From the IMG/VR virus record IMGVR_UViG_2721755497_000004: a stretch of 47,379 nt of DNA; one strand, 5' to 3'. This document shows positions 2,689-45,961 of the stretch, one piece after another (the stretch's first letter is position 1; each line of letters starts with the position of its first letter). The stretch comes from a virus. Its lineage: Duplodnaviria; Heunggongvirae; Uroviricota; Caudoviricetes. The translations under genes and the position numbers were made by a program. The notes beneath the pieces are model-generated. The model was given only the letters and a program-made list of their open reading frames with translations. It searched no databases and was not told where the DNA came from.

Positions 2689-5600
2689 TCACGAAATACT
2701 GATACCCGCCGTGGATTTTTTCATGACCACAACCAGTAAATCACTGATGTATGTTGTCGGCGTCCAGTGGTTCACCCCGTTCGACCACACATTAAACGTC
2801 AGGGTCACATGACCCCGTCCTGCCGGCATATCAATGACGGACGAAAACACCCGGGTGACATCCGTTGCCGGCTCATGAAAAATTACCCTTCCGTTCATCT
2901 GCACCTGTAACTGACACGTGGAATACCATGTTGAAGTGTGATCTTTGCTGGACTGGTGCTCATGTCTCGCCCCCCGGAACAGTACCGGTGGAATGATGAT
3001 CTGCCTGTCGAAGCCCTGGTCATCATAAACGGTGACCGTTATAGTGCCACTGGCATAACTGTTATTCCGTGGGAAAGCTTTCCCCACTGTTTTGACCAGG
3101 TCACCTTCAATCTGGTTTGCAGACAGTTTTCCCAGAATCCGGCAGTTCTGGTTAATGGTCACATTATTGAGCGTGCCAGAGTTCGCATTAATATTTCCGC
3201 TGATATCCGCATTACGGGCCGTCAGCCTGCCTTCCGGCGTCAGGGAGAACACAGGGGGATTGCCGGACGAGGTGATGCTCACCGCAAACAACCGCTTCAG
3301 GAATACGTCGTTCATGAACAACTGATTCCCCTGCGCCACAAACAGCGGCGTGGTGTTGCCGTTCTCCGGGTTAATCATCGCGATACGGTCAGCCTGCAGC
3401 AGAATATTGCTCAGGGTCTGGCCATCAACATCCTCAATCCCCGCACCAATACCAGCAACATACGGAATACCGTTTTTCGTTTTCTGCACCTTCAGCATGT
3501 ACAGTGCGCTCAGGCTGTCATCCGTCTCCTTCTGCACACGCTGTATCTGCTGTATGGTGACACTCTGGTCTTCCAGGATTTTATTGACCGTCTGTGTGAT
3601 TTCATTGCGGGTTTCTGTGATGGTGGTCTTCATCTCCGCCATCTCATCATCAAGCTGACTGTTATCAATCAGCTCCCACATCCCCTGTGCCAGATGTGTC
3701 TTCCCGATTTCTCCTTTGAAAAAGTCCAGATAACCTTCCGCATCATTGCTCGCCCGTCCGGTTGCTTCAACAAAAACGGATTTACCCACCAGGTTGACGC
3801 TGCGCACATAAAACCAGAAATCTGTCCCTGGCTTAATGTGCGAGCCGGAGACGCTCCACTGGCTGCCGGTCCCCAGATAACGGGCGGACGTTTCCACCTG
3901 TGCAGTGTTCGTGATGCGTTTTTCTGAGAACCAGAATTCAAACTGTACCGTCGGATCATACAACGCAAGACGCGGCACTGCTGTTATCTGGAAATAGCCG
4001 GGGGTCAGTTCAATGGTGGCAGGTGCTGCCGGTGCGTTAATCCGGAACGTGGTGATGGCGGCTTCACCCTGCTGCCCATAGCTGTTTATCGCCCTGACCA
4101 TCAGGGTGTACTCCCCCTGTGGCAAACCGCTGAAACGGTGCACCGTATCGGCAGTGATGGCGCTGGTCACCAGACGGCTGTTTTCACCGGTTCCGCTGGT
4201 CAGGCGCAGACTGAAGCGCACGCCCTTCACCACCCGCGGCGTGTCCCATTTCGCCACCGCCAGATACTGACCGTCAGACGCGCTTACCTCCACCGTGAGA
4301 TGCTGTACTGCCGGAGGTGTGACACTGTTCAGCGAACCGGACAACGGCTCAAAGGTGGCACCATTATCCACGATGGCCTCCTTCTCCGGCACATGCTGCA
4401 CCGCCGTGATGGCGAAGGTACCGTCCGCATTTTCGCGGATCGCCACACACCGGAACAGACGGCGGCGCAGTCCCGGCAATGCCAGCCCCCAGATACTGTG
4501 TTCCACCACCCCGTCAGGCAGTGTACTGATCTGTATCCTGTCAGGTGATGGCTGCCCGGTAACATCCACACTCACCGGCTTACCGCTGCCGTTTATCAGA
4601 TTCACCGTGGATGTGCCCTTTTCCGGGAGAGTGACTTCACGGTCAAGCGTCAGGGTCCGGCTGGCGTTGTCGACGGACAGGATCCGCCCGCCGATCACGG
4701 TACCGGCATACGCATTATCACTGATTTCAATGATATCGCCCGGCGTGTGACGCAGTCCCTCCGCCCCCACACTGAAATCCACTGTCTGTGTTTCCAGCAG
4801 TTCGGTCTTTATCACCCACAGGCCTGCCCGGTGAGCCTGACCACGGCTGGTACAGCCGAACGCATCCATCTTCAGAAGATTGCGTCCGTAGCGCAGTATG
4901 GCATCCGGATCCTCCACCAGTTCAGTCGATGTCTGCCAGCCATTCTGCGGATCGGTGTAATTCACCTCAACTGCCGTGTGTCTGTCCTTGAGGGCACTGA
5001 AGCTGTAATGAAAACTTACCCCATCCTCCCCCGTCACCACATTACCGGCGGTATAAGTCCAGACAACATCCGATGGTCTGTCCTGAACAAACGTCAGCGT
5101 CTGTCCGTTCCATACCGGCATACAGCGCATTGCAGAGCAGAAATCCCCCAGCACGTCCCACGCCTTACGCTGTTGTGACAGGTACGCATTAAAGGTCATA
5201 CGGGGTTCTGTACCACCAAAGCCATCCGGAACCGGCTGGTCACAGTACTGTCCGAGGGCATAGAGCGCCCACTTGTCCACATCCGCGGCCCCGAGGCGCT
5301 TTCCCATACCATAACGTGGATGCGTCAGCATATCCCACAGACACCAGGCCGGGTTGTTGCTGTATGCCGGTTTCAGAGTCCCGTCCCAGATACCGCTGTA
5401 TGTACGTTTTTCCGGGTCATAGTTTGACGGCACCTGGATGATGCGCCCGCGGATATGGTAGTTCACCGCCATCTGCTGCCCACCGAACTGCTCCGCATCC
5501 ACCTGCAGCCCCACTATGGCTGTGTTCGGGTAGCTCTGTTTCACATCGATGATTTCGGTGTATGACGACCAGAGCGTTCTGTTCTGCAGCTGGTCCGTGG

Positions 5601-29812: not shown

Positions 29813-29847
29813 TGCAGCCCGTTACCATTCGTAGCGGGCTTTTTTTG
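29813..29847 (+). terminator. plus-strand hairpin plus T7 run
   Basis: AGCCCG...CGGGCT stem followed by TTTTTTT. Confidence 0.45.
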
Positions 29848-29850
29848 TCC

Positions 29851-29876
29851 ATAAAAAAGCCCCTCCGGAGAGGGGC
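29851..29876 (-). terminator. minus-strand intrinsic terminator (GCCCCTC-CGGA-GAGGGGC plus U6)
   Basis: Perfect 7-bp GC stem preceded on the plus strand by AAAAAA; lies downstream (minus sense) of repeat element A. Confidence 0.55.
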
Positions 29877-29907
29877 ATACTAGCTATATATCCATTTATC
29901 ATTGGCT

Positions 29908-30037
29908 GCGTGGTGCCGGGTGCCTCCCGGTGAGCTCAGCCTGGTGTCACTGAGCCCGCACATTCTCGATCCAAGTTATCGTCGGAGATAATACCTGATA
30001 CACCAGACGCCCCTCCGCACAGGGGGATTCACCACGC
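29908..30037 (-). repeat. structured repeat element A (closing helix GCGTGGTG/CACCACGC)
   Basis: 5' arm plus CCGGG-TGCCT-CCCGG hairpin ... variable core ... CCCCT-CCGCAC-AGGGG hairpin plus GATT plus 3' arm; strand assigned from the flanking terminators. Confidence 0.7.
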
Positions 30038-30265
30038 GCAGAGAAGGATACTGAACACTATTTTCTCCAGGCAATATGCAATAACATGAAGTGTGAGATG
30101 ACTTACAATTATAAAAAACAGCCTACAGAATACTCCTAAATAAAGCCATATCAAAATGAGTAACACAAAAAGGAACCAGGCAAAAATTTACGAGCAGGTA
30201 TTATCCAGCAACAGTTCAGACGCCATAACTTATTGCCGATAGCTACCATCAATAATTTCTTTCAT

Positions 30266-30289
30266 AAAAAAGCCCCTCTGAAGAGGGGC
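30266..30289 (-). terminator. minus-strand intrinsic terminator (GCCCCTC-TGAA-GAGGGGC plus U6)
   Basis: Near-identical copy of the element A terminator, downstream (minus sense) of element B. Confidence 0.55.
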
Positions 30290-30316
30290 TGACATACGCA
30301 TTTGCTTTCATCATCA

Positions 30317-30439
30317 ATATGGCGCCGGGTGCCTCCCGGTGCTCCATAACTGATTAATATGGAACGCGGTTTCATTCAGTTGCATTCATGAATAACACTC
30401 TAATCAGTCCGCCCCGCCGCTTAGGGGGATTCGCCATAT
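30317..30439 (-). repeat. structured repeat element B (closing helix ATATGGCG/CGCCATAT, compensatory change)
   Basis: Same architecture as A; terminal helix sequence differs from A but remains perfectly complementary. Confidence 0.7.
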
Positions 30440-30574
30440 AAATTGAAAGTACTGAACACATCTGTCACAAACAATATGCAATTGTATGAATTGTGAGATT
30501 ATTATCAATAACACAAAATTACAGCTCTAGTACATAAACAGCAGATTAAACAAGAACAACAAAAGTATTGAATT

Positions 30575-30700
30575 GCACGGTGCCGGGTGCCTCCCGGTGA
30601 ATTCTGCAATGACCAGACAGAATCCGCAACTTGCTACTAACGCTAATGCGACCAAGCCTAACAGTCATTATGCCCCTCCGCACAGGGGGATTCACCATGC
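30575..30700 (-). repeat. structured repeat element C (closing helix GCACGGTG/CACCATGC, one mismatch)
   Basis: Same conserved hairpins GGTGCCGGGTGCCTCCCGGTGA and CCCCTCCGCACAGGGGGATTCACCA; different variable core. Confidence 0.7.
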
Positions 30701-30829
30701 GCTAAAAAAATACAAAACGTCACGTCACTCTGACAATACGAAGCACCATAAAATGTGAGTTATTTATCAATTCTTAATTCTGGTTACAGGAATATTCCGA
30801 ATCAAATCTTTAAAAAAAGAAATTCAAAT

Positions 30830-30932
30830 GCATGGTGCCGGGTGCCTCCCGGTGAACAGACCGTCCGTGATACCAGTCGGCAACACAGGAAATTAATGGT
30901 ATCACCCCACCGCACAGGGGGATTCACCATGC
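30830..30932 (-). repeat. structured repeat element D (closing helix GCATGGTG/CACCATGC)
   Basis: Same conserved hairpins; shorter variable core containing its own 9-bp hairpin GTGATACCA/TGGTATCAC. Confidence 0.7.
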
Positions 30933-31121
30933 AGGCGTTTTCTTAGCAAACTAACTGCGCGCCCGGCAACTCCCAACCACATAAAACGTGGAGTTTGTAG
31001 CATTTATGCACATAACTCACAGGGGTTATCTTAAAAAAAGCTGACCATGCTTCCCCGGCAACGCAATAACTTTATTCCCTGAAGTGGCATCCCCCGTATT
31101 GTCGGCAGGCTCAAAAAGGAG

Positions 31122-31587: not shown

Positions 31588-31665
31588 TGGACCGTCACCG
31601 GGGACTCGAACCCCGCATTTTCAACATAAAAAGGTTGATGCTCTTTCCTGATGAGCTAGTGACGG
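31588..31665 (-). tRNA. tRNA-like gene with 8-nt anticodon loop (possible unusual tRNA or pseudogene)
   Basis: 7-bp acceptor stem CCGTCAC/GTGACGG, encoded CCA, D arm GCTC/GAGC, T arm CGGGG-TTCGAGT-CCCCG, but anticodon arm TCAAC-CTTTTTAT-GTTGA has an 8-nt loop. Confidence 0.45.
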
Positions 31666-31667
31666 CA

Positions 31668-31742
31668 TGGTTGCCTTGCTGGATTTGAACCAGCGACCTG
31701 GCGATTATGAGTCTCTCGCTCTCACCACTGAGCTAAAGGGCC
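31668..31742 (-). tRNA. tRNA with CAU anticodon (Ile2/Met-like), acceptor and anticodon stems imperfect
   Basis: GGCCCTTTAGCTCAGTGG...CTCATAA...GCTGGTTCAAATCCAGC...CCA; D and T arms canonical; 3 terminal acceptor pairs and 2 anticodon-stem pairs mismatched; one nt short. Confidence 0.55.
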
Positions 31743-31782
31743 GGGAACAGAATAATAATGGTGCGTAATTAATTCTGCAATC

Positions 31783-36116: not shown

Positions 36117-36272
36117 TTACTCCTCAGGTTCGTAAGCTGTGAAGACAGCGACCTCCGTCTGGCCGGTTCGGATTCGTACCTCGCAGAGGTCTTTCCTCGT
36201 TACCAGTGCCGTCACTATGACGGTTAAACAGATGACGATCAGGGCGATTAACATCGCCTTTTGCTGCTTCAT
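36117..36272 (-). CDS. hokD: Hok-family type I toxin
   Basis: 51-aa MKQQKAMLIALIVICLTVIVTALVTRKDLCEVRIRTGQTEVAVFTAYEPEE, canonical Hok; nested in the longer mok-like frame starting at 36329. Confidence 0.85.
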   Translation of the reverse strand: MKQQKAMLIALIVICLTVIVTALVTRKDLCEVRIRTGQTEVAVFTAYEPEE

Positions 36273-36329
36273 AGCCTGCTTCTCCTTGCCTTTCGGCACG
36301 TAAGAGGCTAACCTAGATTTGCCGTTCAT
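36117..36329 (-). CDS. mok: Mok-like overlapping reading frame
   Basis: 70-aa frame (MNGKSRLASYVPKGKEKQA…) extending upstream of and in frame with hok. Confidence 0.45.
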   Translation of the reverse strand: MNGKSRLASYVPKGKEKQAMKQQKAMLIALIVICLTVIVTALVTRKDLCEVRIRTGQTEVAVFTAYEPEE

Positions 36330-36483
36330 AGATTGAGCCTCAGATTAATGTTAAGCGTCTTGCAGGACGCGTAATGTTAACTGGGGCTTTTCTCTATCTG
36401 CCTTTGGTGTTCATGCCTGAGACAGATAGCCTCAAGCACCCGCAGCCATTCTACTTAACTCCCGTTACCTCGCCAATATAAAA

Positions 36484-40078: not shown

Positions 40079-40504
40079 CTAGTGCATCACCACGGCATTT
40101 CCTGCCGGGCCACCACGGTTCATCTGATTGAAACCGGCAATCGCCACTGCGACAAAATCATCAGCGTCTCTCACCAGTCGTTCCCGCGTCTCCACCAGCT
40201 CCCGAAAATAGGCTGAACTGTGGCTGCGCATTCGGGCCACCAGCAAAGGTGGCATTGCCTTTTCGATCGCTGGTAACAACGCCTGAATTTTTTCAACAGC
40301 ATCAGGGGTGTCTTTCTCTACCCAGCGGAAAATTTTCTGGGTATTACGAGCTAGGGCTTCCGGATGGCTGTCGCCGTACAGTTCCGGAAATGTCATTCCC
40401 AGTTCAAAATACGCTTTGGTAATCTTCGCAGTTGGTACTTTCTCGCCATCCGGATGCGCCCAGGCATTCATCGCCATGCGGATGTGCTCATGGCTGATTT
40501 TCAT
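40079..40504 (-). CDS. ydaT: YdaT-like protein
   Basis: 141-aa ORF MKISHEHIRMAM..., directly downstream of and overlapping ydaS as in the Rac prophage. Confidence 0.55.
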   Translation of the reverse strand: MKISHEHIRMAMNAWAHPDGEKVPTAKITKAYFELGMTFPELYGDSHPEALARNTQKIFRWVEKDTPDAVEKIQALLPAIEKAMPPLLVARMRSHSSAYFRELVETRERLVRDADDFVAVAIAGFNQMNRGGPAGNAVVMH

Positions 40505-40811
40505 GAATCATTTGCCTCTTGATATTTCGGGTATGCTCGTTTTCGTCATTTGGTTGCTTCATCAACATATTCAGCGAATAGCATGACGAGCGTCGTAAGT
40601 ATGACCAGTCAACATCAGGACGAAGTTCTTCGCACAGAACACCACCTCTTGTTGCACGTTCAATTGCTGGACATCGCTCAGCAGGCAACTGACGTACACC
40701 TTTGATCCATTGATTTACGCTTGGAGGTGATACACCTAAAAGCCTAGCCATTGCAGATTGCCCACCGACAACAGCACACGCTCGTTTGAATGAATAGTTC
40801 TCTTTTTTCAT
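40488..40811 (-). CDS. ydaS: Cro-like HTH regulator YdaS
   Basis: MKKENYSFKRACAVVGGQSAMARLLGVSPPSVNQWIKGVRQLPAERCPAIERATRG..., HTH Cro/CI type; divergent from the repressor. Confidence 0.7.
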   Translation of the reverse strand: MKKENYSFKRACAVVGGQSAMARLLGVSPPSVNQWIKGVRQLPAERCPAIERATRGGVLCEELRPDVDWSYLRRSSCYSLNMLMKQPNDENEHTRNIKRQMIHENQP

Positions 40812-40842: not shown

Positions 40843-40908
40843 TTAGGCGACGCCTAATGCAAATGTCAATAGGCGTCGCCTAACACAAATGAAGTAGGGA
40901 TTGCCTAA
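40843..40908. promoter_or_regulatory. operator region: palindromic TTAGGCGACGCCTAA sites between ydaS and racR
   Basis: Two near-perfect 15-bp palindromes (40843-40857, 40869-40883) and a third degenerate half-site (40895-40908). Confidence 0.5.
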
Positions 40909-40936: not shown

Positions 40937-41413
40937 ATGCTTAGTGGTAAAGACTTAGGCCGAGCGATAGAGCAGGCCATTAACAAAAAAATTGCATCAG
41001 GATCCGTCAAATCAAAGGCGGAGGTAGCGCGTCACTTCAAAGTCCAACCACCATCAATCTATGATTGGATTAAGAAAGGTTCGATAAGTAAAGATAAACT
41101 TCCAGAGCTATGGCGTTTCTTTTCTGATGTGGTTGGCCCAGAGCATTGGGGGCTTAACGAATACCCCATACCAACCTCCCTCATTTCAGATACAAAAAGT
41201 GAACTTTTAGACATAAACAGCCTTTATCAAGCCGCCTCTGATGAAAAAAGAGCCATTGTGGCTTTTCTCTTATCAGAAAATGCCACGGAACCTAGTTGGG
41301 TTGATCATGACGTTCGCGCCTACATTGCCACAATGGAGATGAAGGTAGGTAAGTATTTGAAAGATCGAGAATCAGAACGGAAAAGCCAGAACATCACCAA
41401 AACGGGAACTTAA
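40937..41413 (+). CDS. racR: prophage repressor (RacR-like)
   Basis: 158-aa ORF, RBS AGGAGAG, N-terminal HTH (…SKAEVARHFKVQPPSIYDWIKKG…), divergently transcribed from ydaS. Confidence 0.65.
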   Translation: MLSGKDLGRAIEQAINKKIASGSVKSKAEVARHFKVQPPSIYDWIKKGSISKDKLPELWRFFSDVVGPEHWGLNEYPIPTSLISDTKSELLDINSLYQAASDEKRAIVAFLLSENATEPSWVDHDVRAYIATMEMKVGKYLKDRESERKSQNITKTGT

Positions 41414-41998: not shown

Positions 41999-42556
41999 CT
42001 ACAGATTGCCGTTCAGTTTTCTGGCCAACTCCTCAATAGATGGAGGCGATACATAATCCGGATTTTTATTCATAAGAAACTGATTTTCACAGTAGAGGCA
42101 CCTGCTTTTATGAAAAAACTCATATTCTCTAACCGGGAATGGTTGAAGTATCGATACTATCTTTTGTCCAAAACATTTTGGACAAAGATGCATGATTATG
42201 CTGCCGCCGTTCACGGTTACCTCCTTCGAGTACACAAAAGTTCCCGACTCAAGTTGGTTAAGGATATAACCTTCCGTCTGAGCCTCAAAGTTTTCAAATT
42301 CTGCAATTTTAGCTTTGAGAGAAGCATTTATTTCTTGATAAGTGCCCACCAGCTCAACGAGAGACACGCATTCGCGCTGAATAGATGCAAGCTTTGAGTT
42401 CAGTTCACCAATAGCCGCATTTACTTCAGCTTGAGTTTTTGCCTCGTTCATTAGTTTTGCAATCTGAGCGGTTTCACGAATAGCCGTCATTGCTGCCGTT
42501 AATTCAGCGATCACATTCAATACTCTTATTGTTGTTGGGGATATCCAGATTAACAA
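41999..42556 (-). CDS. hypothetical coiled-coil protein with C-terminal zinc-ribbon (CPKC...CLYC)
   Basis: 185-aa AT-rich ORF counter-oriented within the leftward early region next to the repressor; exact start uncertain. Confidence 0.5.
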   Translation of the reverse strand: MLIWISPTTIRVLNVIAELTAAMTAIRETAQIAKLMNEAKTQAEVNAAIGELNSKLASIQRECVSLVELVGTYQEINASLKAKIAEFENFEAQTEGYILNQLESGTFVYSKEVTVNGGSIIMHLCPKCFGQKIVSILQPFPVREYEFFHKSRCLYCENQFLMNKNPDYVSPPSIEELARKLNGNL

Positions 42557-42864
42557 GATCCTTGTTGTTGGGGAATAACAGGTCCACCTCGCCTGACGTG
42601 GTTAAAAGCAGGCACACAACACGAAAGCGCTCGGCGAAGTTCGTCTCTCTGTACTTTGTCGTTAAATTTAATTCGACCGTGCGCTTCCGGTTGTGGCAAT
42701 CCGCGAAATAGCGCGGCGGTAAGTATGGCGGGGTTATTCCTTCCCCCATTGAGGACACCGGGTTGTCAGGTTGACCATACGCTTAAGTGACACCCCAGCC
42801 ACAACAACCTCTGTTATCACTTTTCTGGTGATTCGGCGGAAATGGATATCCGCCCTTTTTAAAG

Positions 42865-43020
42865 TGAATTTTGTGATGCGGTGAATGCGGCTATGCGCAC
42901 GCGGAACAGTTAAAACAAGCGGTCTTTTACTTCCGTAACAGACATCAACTAACAATCCGGCGTTAATTGTTAACTGGTTAACGTCATCTGGAGGCACCAG
43001 GCACCGCATCACAAAATTCA
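42865..43020. repeat. pair of perfect 19-bp inverted repeats (TGAATTTTGTGATGCGGTG / CACCGCATCACAAAATTCA) flanking 118 bp
   Basis: Exact reverse complements at 42865-42883 and 43002-43020; interior contains GTTAAC-type palindromes. Confidence 0.6.
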
Positions 43021-43037
43021 TTGTTGAGGACGCGATA

Positions 43038-43226
43038 ATGGAAACGTTATTACCAAACGTTAATACGTCTGAAGGTTGTTTTGAAATTGGTGTCAGTATC
43101 AGTAACCCTGCATTTACTGAAGATGCCATTAATAAGAGAAAACACGAACGGGAGTTATTAAATCAAATATGCATTGTTTCAATGCTGGCCCGTTTACGTC
43201 TGATGCAAAAAGGATACTGGCAATGA
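43038..43226 (+). CDS. hypothetical small protein
   Basis: 62-aa ORF starting right after the inverted-repeat structure; ATGA-coupled to the next ORF. Confidence 0.4.
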   Translation: METLLPNVNTSEGCFEIGVSISNPAFTEDAINKRKHERELLNQICIVSMLARLRLMQKGYWQ

Positions 43227-43414
43227 ATACAGCATTCGCACTCGTTCTGACAGTTTTTCTTAATACCGGCGAACCACTTGATCTTATTGTTGATATACGT
43301 GACTCAATGGAAGAATGCATGGCTGCCGCAGATGAACAGAAAATTCCCGGTAACTGTTATCCGGTAGATAAAGTTATTCGCATGGATAATAACAAAGTCC
43401 CGGCAGGGCTTTAA
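43223..43414 (+). CDS. hypothetical small protein with signal-peptide-like N-terminus
   Basis: ~63 aa MNTAFALVLTVFLNTGEPLD..., RBS AAAGGA. Confidence 0.45.
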   Translation: MNTAFALVLTVFLNTGEPLDLIVDIRDSMEECMAAADEQKIPGNCYPVDKVIRMDNNKVPAGL

Positions 43415-43504: not shown

Positions 43505-45961
43505 ATGAGCGCTGATAAAGAAGAAATTGCACTATATTACGAAGCCAAAAATGACAAAGTCAGAAAACGTCTTGGGATTAAAGGCGGTTTTTACTGGCGC
43601 ACAGCAAAAAAATTATCGGTTGCAATATCACGCGGTGTTGTCGCAATGGACGATGCTGGATTTGACGAAGAGGATTTTAAAAAACCTGTTCGCGTCCATT
43701 TACCCGTTGTGAATGACCTTCCTCCGGAAGGCGTGTTTGATACCGAATTCTGCAACCGATACGAAAAAGGCGGGGAAGATGGTATCACAATGGTACTTAT
43801 CGCGCCCTCACCTATCGCGCCCTCACCCTCTGTTCAGGACAAACCAGCCAGCACTGACAATACCAACGTCAACGGCGAAGACATGACTGAGATTGAGGAG
43901 AATATGCTCCTGCCGGTTTCAGGTCAGATTCTGCCTGTTCAATGGCTGGCACAGCACGGCAGCGAAAAACCGATCACACACGTTTCGCGGGGCGAACTGC
44001 GCGCATTACATAACGCACAGGATGAAAAACTTCCCGCCGTTACCGCGCTGGCCATCTCAAATAAAGCTGCGCAACTCGAACCGCTGGAAATTCGCGATCT
44101 CCACAAACTGGTTCGTGACACTGACAAGGTTTTCCCTAATCCTGGTAATTCAGACCTGGGGCTGATGACTGCTTTTTTCGAAGCATACCTGGGCGCTGAC
44201 TACACCGATCGCGGTCTGCTGACAAAAGAGTGGATGAAAGGAAATCGTGTTTCACGCATCACCCGCACGACTTCCGGTGCTAATGCCGGTGGAGGGAACA
44301 AAACCGATCGCAATCCGAATTTAGTACACACCCTCGACACACTGGATGTGGAGATTGCAGCAGCCACACTTCCGATGGATTTTAATATTTATGAAATTCC
44401 GGGCAGCATTTATCGTCGCGCAAAAGAAGTCGTCCTGAAAAAAGAAAGTCCGTTCAAAGAATGGTCCGCAGCACTTCGTGCAACCCCGGGTATTCTGGAC
44501 TATTCCCGCGCCGCTATTTTTGCACTTATCCGAAGCGCACACCCTGAATTTTATCACTACCCGGGACGCCTTCAGGGGTATATCAACGCCTATTTGACGG
44601 AAACTGATCACGAGACCCCCAGCAAGGAAACTCTCACAGCTGCCCGGCATACGCCGGAAAAAGATATCCTGGAAGAAATTAACCGCGAGGTGGTTACTGA
44701 GCGTGAAACAGAAAAAGAAAAACCACAACCATCTGACGCAATGGCAGGTGAACAGGCAACAACTGAAACAATGGAACAGGATACAACTGAACATTGCCAG
44801 GACGCGCAGTCGCTGGATGCTCAGTCGCAGGTGAGTTCCGCTAACCAATTAAAAGTCACCGCTGACGAAGTAAACAAAATTATGCAGGCAGCCAGTATCA
44901 GCCAGCCTGATGCCGATAAGTTGCTTGCTGTATCGCGTGGTGAATTTGTTGAAGGGATTAGCGATCCGAATGATCCTAAATGGGTGAAGGGGATTGAAAC
45001 CCGCGATTCTGTGAACCAGAACCAGCAAGAAACGGAACAGAACGACCAGAAAGCGGAACAAAACAGCCCAAATACGCAACAAAACGAGCCAGAAACGAAA
45101 CAACCTGAACCAGTAGTGCAACAAGAACCGGAAAAGATCTGCGCCGCCTGCGGTCAGAGCGGTGGCGGCAACTGCCCTGATTGTGGTGCGGTGATGGGCG
45201 ACGCAACATACCAGGAAACATTCGATGACAAGAACCAGGTTGAAGTTCAGGAAGACGATTCGGAGAAAATGGAAGGCGCTGAACATCCACACAAGGAGAA
45301 TGCTGGCAGCGCTCAGGACCACGCCAGCGATAGTGAAACTGACGAGACGGCAGATCCCTTAATTACGGTGAACAGTCATCACGTTATCACATCCACCAGC
45401 AGGACGTGTGACCATCTAATGATCGACCTTGAAACCATGGGAAAAAATCCTGATGCCCCGATTATCTCAATAGGTGCAATATTTTTCGATCCGCAAACCG
45501 GAGATATGGGACCGGAATTTAGTAAGACTGTCGATCTGGAAACTGCTGGCGGAGTCATTGATCGGGACACCATTAAATGGTGGCTTAAGCAATCACGCGA
45601 AGCGCAATCTGCCATTATGACCGATGAAATCCCGTTAGATGATGCACTGTTACAATTGCGGGAATTTATCGACGAAAACTCCGGTGAATTTTTTGTTCAG
45701 GTCTGGGGTAACGGTGCAACTTTCGACAACGTGATTTTACGCCGTTCATATGAACGGCAGGGGATCCCCTGCCCGTGGCGTTACACCAATGATCGCGATG
45801 TAAGAACGATGGTTGCTCTGGGACTGGTGATGGATTTCGACGCAAGAACGACTATTCCATTCGAAGGTGAACGCCATAACGCCCTGCACGATGCGCGTTA
45901 CCAGGCAAAATACGTTTCAGCCATCTGGCAAAAACTGATCCCGAGTCAGGCTGATTTTTAA
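43505..45961 (+). CDS. RecE-like prophage exonuclease with C-terminal DEDDh (DnaQ-like) 3'-5' exonuclease domain
   Basis: 818-aa ORF; N-terminal and central segments resemble the RecE non-catalytic region as recalled; C-terminal ~190 aa has Exo I (MIDLETMG), Exo II (WGNGATFD) and Exo III (HNALHDARY) motifs; acidic linker with CxxC...CxxC. Confidence 0.7.
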   Translation: MSADKEEIALYYEAKNDKVRKRLGIKGGFYWRTAKKLSVAISRGVVAMDDAGFDEEDFKKPVRVHLPVVNDLPPEGVFDTEFCNRYEKGGEDGITMVLIAPSPIAPSPSVQDKPASTDNTNVNGEDMTEIEENMLLPVSGQILPVQWLAQHGSEKPITHVSRGELRALHNAQDEKLPAVTALAISNKAAQLEPLEIRDLHKLVRDTDKVFPNPGNSDLGLMTAFFEAYLGADYTDRGLLTKEWMKGNRVSRITRTTSGANAGGGNKTDRNPNLVHTLDTLDVEIAAATLPMDFNIYEIPGSIYRRAKEVVLKKESPFKEWSAALRATPGILDYSRAAIFALIRSAHPEFYHYPGRLQGYINAYLTETDHETPSKETLTAARHTPEKDILEEINREVVTERETEKEKPQPSDAMAGEQATTETMEQDTTEHCQDAQSLDAQSQVSSANQLKVTADEVNKIMQAASISQPDADKLLAVSRGEFVEGISDPNDPKWVKGIETRDSVNQNQQETEQNDQKAEQNSPNTQQNEPETKQPEPVVQQEPEKICAACGQSGGGNCPDCGAVMGDATYQETFDDKNQVEVQEDDSEKMEGAEHPHKENAGSAQDHASDSETDETADPLITVNSHHVITSTSRTCDHLMIDLETMGKNPDAPIISIGAIFFDPQTGDMGPEFSKTVDLETAGGVIDRDTIKWWLKQSREAQSAIMTDEIPLDDALLQLREFIDENSGEFFVQVWGNGATFDNVILRRSYERQGIPCPWRYTNDRDVRTMVALGLVMDFDARTTIPFEGERHNALHDARYQAKYVSAIWQKLIPSQADF

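Follow-up and report, generated by a model that had tools for sequence, protein, structure and literature searches.

We conclude that the two arms of a perfect 19-nt inverted repeat in a 47,379-nt stretch of virus DNA (the window, by which we mean the whole stretch analyzed) are the two strands of an RNA helix that closes a conserved multi-hairpin domain, because variation in the helix preserves pairing as G.U, because relatives carry compensatory changes and because paired positions covary. In our model, these strands form a long-range helix in the + strand transcript that probably serves as the RNase III processing site separating DicF from the dicB mRNA. Both DicF and DicB belong to the classic inhibitors of host cell division encoded by prophages, and DicB in addition gives protection against phage infection, so that the way in which one transcript is resolved into these two products determines their ratio. 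An orthologous processing site was reported for Escherichia coli K-12 in 1990, and the feature is therefore essentially already known; possibly new are only the kinship of the enclosed domain with the small RNA (sRNA) family STnc100/PasD and the predicted excision of a ~138-nt core RNA.

A conserved RNA domain between DicF and dicB

A repeat search of the window places the left arm at 42865-42883 (TGAATTTTGTGATGCGGTG) and the right arm at 43002-43020 (CACCGCATCACAAAATTCA), each 19 nt long, 100% complementary to each other and separated by 118 nt, which recovers both the coordinates and the complementarity described in an earlier note on this DNA. The pair is the longest perfect local inverted repeat of the whole 47-kb window (seed 12, spacing ≤400 nt, whole window ranked), and the window base composition predicts 6e-5 perfect 19-nt inverted repeats at spacing ≤400 nt, in line with the claim of that note that identity over 19 bp is improbable by chance. 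Beyond the arms, one A-U and one G.U pair extend the pairing to a 21-bp helix in which, from the repeat search and the fold, the 5' strand (left arm plus the two outer pairs) spans 42863-42883 and the 3' strand (right arm plus two pairs) 43002-43022, both on the + strand.

The element lies on the coding strand between a DicF-like terminator and the dicB start codon, in the order terminator (42835-42860), helix (42863-43022) and dicB (43038), and K-12 has the same terminator-helix-dicB order. The two coupled small ORFs that had been noticed directly downstream turn out to be dicB (43038-43226, +; Pfam PF05358 DicB, E 2.4e-38), which encodes a 62-aa cell-division inhibitor, begins 17 nt past the right arm and bears this name in the annotation of a 100% identical E. 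coli M18 record, and a DUF1482 (ydfD-like) gene (43223-43414, +; Pfam PF07358, E 2.5e-20), which the ORF list places in an ATGA overlap with dicB, by which the two are translationally coupled. Genes for an exonuclease, xis and int lie downstream of the ydfD-like gene, and YdaS/Cro-like, repressor-like and ydfA-like (DUF1391) genes lie upstream. This gene order is the dicBF operon layout of the K-12 Qin prophage, and the host element is a lambdoid prophage with a dicBF-type early operon. No promoter-like site was found within 42550-43250 in a promoter/terminator scan.

The window is 100% identical to E. coli M18 across the element stretch, and the region is present in 4623 of 5426 complete E. 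coli genomes, each of which has it at up to 9 places (median 2); these amount to 10634 places, and dicB lies under every full-length match among those sampled. In the IMG/VR loci the element likewise adjoins DicF and/or dicB, and it also occurs in viable phages, namely mEp460, Tritos, Stx2a-converting phages and Rac-SA53.

A shortened DicF-like sRNA directly precedes the left arm. This RNA (42822-42860, +; assigned from sequence and terminator scan) consists of the conserved 5' UUUCUGGUGA followed by a terminator hairpin (42835-42854) and a U-tract (42856-42860), and it lacks the central and 3' part of DicF. The Rfam DicF model (RF00039) has no match at E≤10 within 42500-43300, while at the equivalent position it scores 76.7 bits in K-12 and 34-71 bits in other loci. 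The shortened variant is also present in one other locus (L004) and nearly so in E. albertii (L089). In K-12 the central/3' portion of DicF pairs with ftsZ, according to PMC5069750, and judging from its sequence the shortened RNA may have lost ftsZ targeting. Because the DicF-like RNA is shortened and goes unrecognized by Rfam, the behavior of this operon may not be exactly that of K-12.

Several other features of the surrounding DNA were recorded. A minus-strand ORF (42734-43129, 131 aa) that overlaps the element was rejected as a gene: it is unannotated in the identical M18 record, and element lengths among variants range from 148 to 183 nt and differ by non-multiples of 3. Another minus-strand ORF of 185 aa (41999-42556) occupies the position of ydfB/ydfC in K-12 and runs antisense to the operon; the M18 record, which is identical here, lists it as a pseudogene with an internal stop. 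Between the divergent YdaS/Cro-like (40488-40811, -) and repressor-like (40937-41413, +) genes lies a 17-nt inverted repeat (40843-40883; 94% complementary, 7-nt spacer) that is probably an immunity-region operator. The presence of a full-length sok antitoxin RNA (36267-36441, -; RF01794, 110 bits) implies that the prophage contains a hok/sok-type toxin-antitoxin locus. Finally, the gene of the 818-aa exonuclease contains a 15-nt tandem duplication at 43795-43824 (ACTTATCGCGCCCTC / ACCTATCGCGCCCTC), by which the peptide IAPSP is repeated in the protein.

Fold prediction of the leader, which the earlier note had proposed as a check on one of its candidates, a large hairpin in an RNA leader, gives -62.4 kcal/mol for the + strand with a z of -7.0, and the K-12 element has the same predicted architecture, with the 21-bp helix in both. 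The - strand folds nearly as stably (-61.2 kcal/mol); because folding energy does not separate the strands, the strand was assigned from the wobble pattern, the gene orientation and the scores of a model built from dicB-leader elements only, which scores the element at 171 bits on the + strand and at 40 bits on its own reverse strand (the E-values of this model are rough). Within the enclosed domain, the 5' and central part (42884-42958, +; alignment A1 and fold) starts with a conserved GAAU linker and a first hairpin (42886-42899) and continues into a hypervariable, indel-rich center. It is followed by a conserved 10-bp hairpin, GGCGUUAAUU / GGUUAACGUC (42959-42985, +; fold and alignment A1), with double changes in 11/11 pairs across the wider family; the GTTAAC-like palindromes that had been remarked on inside the repeat are real, GGCGTTAATTGTTAACTGGTTAACGTC being the stem of this hairpin. 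A conserved 5-bp hairpin with the invariant loop AGGCA (42987-43001, +; fold and motif count) completes the domain and is part of the family motif GGAGGCACCNGGCACC; its middle pair switches from G-C to U-A with zero breaks (alignment A2, pair 26/36).

The variation in the helix is that of an RNA. From 90 loci gathered via DicB we obtained 36 distinct elements (alignment A1), in which nine positions of the 21-bp helix vary. At six of these the + strand retains a G.U pair (19 sequence cells), whereas the changes at the remaining three are singleton breaks, and the same six changes are mismatches when read on the - strand or as DNA symmetry. K-12 itself, with a left arm ...GAUGUGGUG and a right arm CACUGCAUC..., differs from the window once per 19-nt arm, U.G and G.U replacing the C-G and G-C of the window. 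Double compensatory changes are absent from the 36 distinct variants of this dicB-adjacent set. The comparison set was therefore widened via the GGAGGCACCNGGCACC motif, by which at least 120 viral contigs were retrieved, and two members of the subfamily of the element, which we refer to as the CCUGG subfamily, carry compensated helix pairs (U-A to G-C in L147, A-U to G-C in L154).

Two further alignments extend this result to the wider family, whose more distant members supply the covariation. In alignment A2, which is ungapped, anchored on the invariant GGUGAA and motif sequences and composed of 78 distinct strings, the helix pairs beside GGUG/CACC alternate among UA, CG, GC and AU, and the covariation score is 0.236 against 0.134 after shuffling (0/500 as high) and 0.06-0.14 for slid partners. 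Alignment A3 covers the whole domain in 124 hits; it was fitted to the model, and so leans towards it, and includes some reverse-strand hits. Here 94.1% of cells are paired against 72.9% in shuffled controls, double changes occur in 39/45 pairs, and the covariation score is 0.401 against 0.126 shuffled and ≤0.075 slid. The support for the outer 11 bp consists of wobble-type variation and the two compensated relatives (L147 and L154) and is narrower than the covariation of the inner part.

[quoted passage not shown]

About two helical turns of double-stranded RNA (dsRNA) is the size class cut by RNase III, the cuts of which leave a 2-nt 3' overhang. That RNase III processes the full-length dicBF RNA to a 72-nt DicF is stated by Balasubramanian et al. 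2016 (PMC5069750) and by Ponath et al. 2022 (PMC9438474), both citing Faubladier, Cam and Bouche 1990, and the dicF-dicB intergenic region stands on the RNase III substrate list of a 2009 review (PMC2777011). Counted from the annotated K-12 DicF 5' end, 72 nt lead to position 3454 of the K-12 locus (L002), the tenth nucleotide of the 19-nt left arm (3445-3463) and hence the helix center, and the end stays inside the arm for ±6 nt; this position rests on the lengths of 53 and 72 nt as quoted in secondary sources. In two transcriptome-wide K-12 RNase III maps (PMC6212723, PMC5371410), DicF appears only as a citation, with nothing on the site; under laboratory conditions the dicBF operon is repressed. 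A full-length ydfABC-dicFB-ydfDE species was never detected in a 2023 preprint (bioRxiv 10.1101/2023.04.14.536235), and its absence fits cleavage between dicF and dicB. Because the K-12 72-nt end falls at the helix center and no full-length species has been detected, we regard an RNase III site as the best-supported mechanism.

The same preprint describes a 190-nt DicF precursor and the dependence of this precursor on RNase III, and discusses an upstream RNase III site only. We considered the repeat as the site that generates this precursor and rejected it, since that site is a separate upstream hairpin: in folds of L002:3170-3445 for K-12, the RNase III-generated 5' end of the 190-nt precursor lies in the 3' strand of an upstream hairpin at ~3173-3258. 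In folds of 42590-42862, the window has a counterpart of this precursor hairpin, imperfect and located at approximately 42615-42697 (+). Because the precursor hairpin is conserved upstream in the window, DicF is bracketed by two separate dsRNA sites, the upstream hairpin and the 21-bp helix.

In our model of the locus, transcripts that read through the DicF-like terminator (42835-42860) would fold their next ~160 nt into the domain closed by the 21-bp helix, and RNase III would cut this helix near its center. By homology with the 72-nt DicF 3' end of K-12, the 5' strand would be cut after about 42874 and, given the 2-nt stagger, the 3' strand after about 43012, so that the dicB mRNA would begin at about 43013. 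Three products would result: a 3'-extended DicF-like RNA (72 nt in K-12), an excised structured core of ~138 nt retaining a closing stem of ~10 bp, and a dicB-ydfD mRNA with a leader of ~25 nt and a free ribosome-binding site. The lengthening of the closing stem from ~8 to 21 bp is, in this model, what makes the element an RNase III substrate. For the window prophage we infer cleavage itself, the precise sites of the cuts, a stable core RNA as a released product and any effect on dicB translation from these parallels.

We speculate, as an idea that is possible yet rather doubtful, that RNase III acting at the helix center excises a ~138-nt STnc100/PasD-like core (130 nt in K-12) and thereby makes this a three-product locus. 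If true, the dicBF locus would yield DicF, a hitherto undescribed STnc100-like sRNA and the dicB mRNA, and a widespread phage sRNA scaffold that usually has its own terminator would have become an intra-operonic RNA released by RNase III by way of a longer stem. The same cut might then also permit the toxic dicB to be translated, its ribosome-binding site having become free.

Kinship with STnc100/PasD and other readings of the helix

The enclosed core is distantly related to STnc100/PasD, a family of prophage sRNAs, as shown by matches that are sub-threshold but reciprocal. Rfam at gathering thresholds has no match at the locus; below threshold, STnc100 (RF02076) matches the element with 32.5 bits and E 3.3e-5 against a gathering threshold of 47 bits, in a covariance model alignment that spans model positions 1-206 and in which the outer stem of the model coincides with the two arms. 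When 13 related loci were scanned with STnc100, all gave scores of 29.9-41.3 bits, and 12/13 matches were at the position upstream of dicB; in L028 the match is just downstream of DicF, about 900 nt ahead of dicB. Conversely, the model built from dicB-leader elements only recovers the four STnc100 copies of the window at 40-50.5 bits against a background of ≤11.8. The window has 5 occurrences of the family motif GGAGGCACCNGGCACC, where 0.2 would be expected, namely in the four STnc100 copies and in the dicB-leader element. Both signature motifs are present in the element, GGUGAAU after the 5' strand and GGAGGCACCNGGCACC ending in the 3' strand, and model R1 scores the window element at 170.7 bits and that of K-12 at 187.2 bits.

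The closing stems of the two groups differ in length. Among distinct CCUGG-type elements, 39/40 have a closing stem of at least 15 bp (15-22), whereas only 1/77 distinct classical STnc100-type elements does so, with a median of 8 bp. Because classical STnc100 stems are short and CCUGG-type stems long, the longer stem, which makes about two turns of helix, is a trait derived in the dicF-dicB-type subfamily. The CCUGG-type elements have no T-run within 90 nt downstream and thus lack a Rho-independent terminator of their own at the 3' end. We found no paper linking the dicF-dicB spacer with STnc100/PasD in the literature searched, and nothing relevant there on dicF.dicB RIL-seq-type names or on PasD with RNase III; the 2026 Pas preprint by Zhu, Shabalina and Storz makes no mention of dicB or dicF, and the Rfam-based annotation of EDL933 has no STnc100 copy beside any DicF copy.

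Related scaffolds occur elsewhere in the window and in other phages. Four tandem STnc100 (RF02076) copies with scores of 76.6-133 bits occupy 29847-30962 on the - strand (29847-30067, 30260-30465, 30530-30729 and 30784-30962), an unusual array for this scaffold; in the two full cmscan alignments the last copy (29847-30067) has a full terminator hairpin and the copy at 30530-30729 lacks most of it. Just upstream of the array are two phage tRNA genes (31588-31743, -), both called tRNA by Rfam, for which ARAGORN gives a tRNA-Met(CAT) and a tRNA-??? with the odd four-base anticodon 'tttt'. Phage P7 carries a close relative of the element (L211 1499-1618, equivalent to about 72451-72570 of NC_050152; 108.5 bits with model R1) in its ban operon between two tRNA genes and terB/tciA, and phage D6 carries one too; the scaffold is thus also found in P1-like phages, again intergenic beside tRNAs. 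In the IMG/VR prophage contigs L028 (400-1500) and L072, an isrK RNA (65 bits), a C4 antisense RNA (78 bits) and an ORF come after DicF and the element and ahead of dicB. The insertion junction is inside the right arm, after CACCGCATCA, with CAAAATTCATTG kept directly before dicB, and in these loci a P1-type immI-like module is spliced into the helix.

This kinship bears on how the helix itself is to be read. The helix could be only the architectural closing stem of an autonomous STnc100/PasD-like domain, with a role such as that of an Hfq-associated sRNA or sponge, a barrier to Rho or RNase E or a 5' stabilizer of the dicB mRNA, and RNase III cutting would then be incidental or absent here. 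Such a role would suit a domain whose homologues accumulate as discrete sRNAs, the covarying closing stem in all family members, and the conservation of two 3' hairpins and of the GGUGAAU and GGAGGCACC motifs beyond what a bare RNase III site needs. However, a stem of 21-22 bp, in the size class of RNase III, is confined to the dicF-dicB-type subfamily, and the reported RNase III-dependent DicF 3' end of K-12 falls at the helix center, and we therefore think it unlikely that closure of the domain is the only role of the helix. Architecture and processing may in any case complement more than exclude each other.

A translational switch, in which pairing between the U-tract of the terminator and the dicB Shine-Dalgarno sequence (GAGGA, 43026-43030, +) would hide the ribosome-binding site of the toxic dicB until the helix is opened or cut, is less probable still as the main function. 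Beyond a 1-nt bulge, UUUUUAA can form 7 further weak pairs with UUGAGGA, which brings the helix with bulge to 28, and in a partition-function calculation the probability that the Shine-Dalgarno sequence is unpaired is 0.17 in the uncut window RNA (0.25 in uncut K-12 RNA) and 0.80 after the cut. Nevertheless, the extra pairs comprise three G.U and otherwise A-U pairs and are present in the minimum free energy structure but absent from the centroid, and L014, which lacks the DicF terminator, still has the helix and dicB. Any U-tract would pair with a purine-rich Shine-Dalgarno sequence, so that conservation of this pairing is not independent evidence. That the Shine-Dalgarno sequence is paired with the terminator U-tract before the cut and open afterwards is for these reasons a weak, though testable, suggestion of the model calculation.

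Operator half-sites, a recombination site or the terminal inverted repeats of a MITE or IS would account for the perfection of the 19-bp repeat in the window and for the mosaic junctions at or inside the arms in other prophages (L014, L028/L072), but an element acting at the DNA level is very improbable, given natural variants that lose DNA symmetry and keep RNA pairing, relatives with compensatory changes, an interior of conserved structured RNA in place of variable cargo, and a single shared context, next to dicB, for the sampled full-length copies. Thus, among the three candidates of the earlier note, the RNA-leader hairpin is supported, on the strength of the wobble-only + strand variation, the compensatory changes in relatives, the z of -7.0 and the reported RNase III-dependent DicF 3' end that maps into the left arm. 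The pair of regulator binding sites is not supported, as no promoter-like site lies within 42550-43250, the arm variants would destroy the symmetry of the DNA, and the operator-like palindrome at 40843-40883 is about 2 kb upstream. The MITE or IS-end remnant is not supported either: the flanks CTTTTTAAAG and TTGTTGAGGA have no direct repeat and hence no target-site duplication, the 118-nt interior is no filler, and of the further genomic copies that the note had suggested looking for, the sampled full-length ones in E. coli all adjoin dicB and are not dispersed in unrelated contexts.

Comparison with known systems

None of these results alters the present picture of the dicBF operon. The location of the helix accounts for the reported DicF 3' end and thereby provides precise nucleotides for mutation. 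The kinship with STnc100/PasD is modestly useful in that it connects abundant prophage sRNAs of EHEC, EPEC and Salmonella with a locus whose processing and genetics are known, and in that it points to their closing stems as the place in which to seek maturation signals.

The closest known system is the dicBF region of the K-12 Qin prophage (ydfABC-dicF-dicB-ydfD), in which the orthologous sequence occupies the same spot, between the DicF terminator and dicB and immediately adjacent to both, with flanks that are near-invariant in alignment A1, two wobble pairs in its helix, the same predicted fold, and the published 72-nt 3' end at the helix center. The window differs in having a perfect helix, 118 nt between the arms against 110 in K-12 and another hypervariable center, and in its shortened DicF and the replacement of ydfB and ydfC by an unrelated minus-strand ORF. 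The reported RNase III dependence is that of K-12.

With the STnc100/PasD RNAs the dicB-leader element shares a closing stem that ends in GGUG/CACC, the GAAU linker, the first hairpin, the long penultimate hairpin, the last hairpin with the loop AGGCA and covariation across both groups. Both groups are intergenic in long operons of lambdoid phages, and four classical copies lie in the same window. The dicB-leader element differs in its score (32.5 bits against the cut-off of 47), in its stem of 21 bp against about 8 and in the lack of its own terminator, in place of which the ribosome-binding site and start codon of dicB follow. It is located in the early-left (dicB) operon, whereas the classical elements are found near Q, stx or lysis genes.

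Finally, the T7 early intercistronic R sites and the lambda N-leader site are RNase III sites in phage polycistronic RNAs, and cuts at sites of this type separate functional units and can alter the translation or stability of the downstream cistron. Like them, the dicB element is a dsRNA about two helical turns long that is located in an intercistronic or leader region of an early phage RNA. In contrast to these simple hairpins, its strands are 118 nt apart and enclose a multi-hairpin domain, and the product upstream of the dicB element is a trans-acting sRNA.
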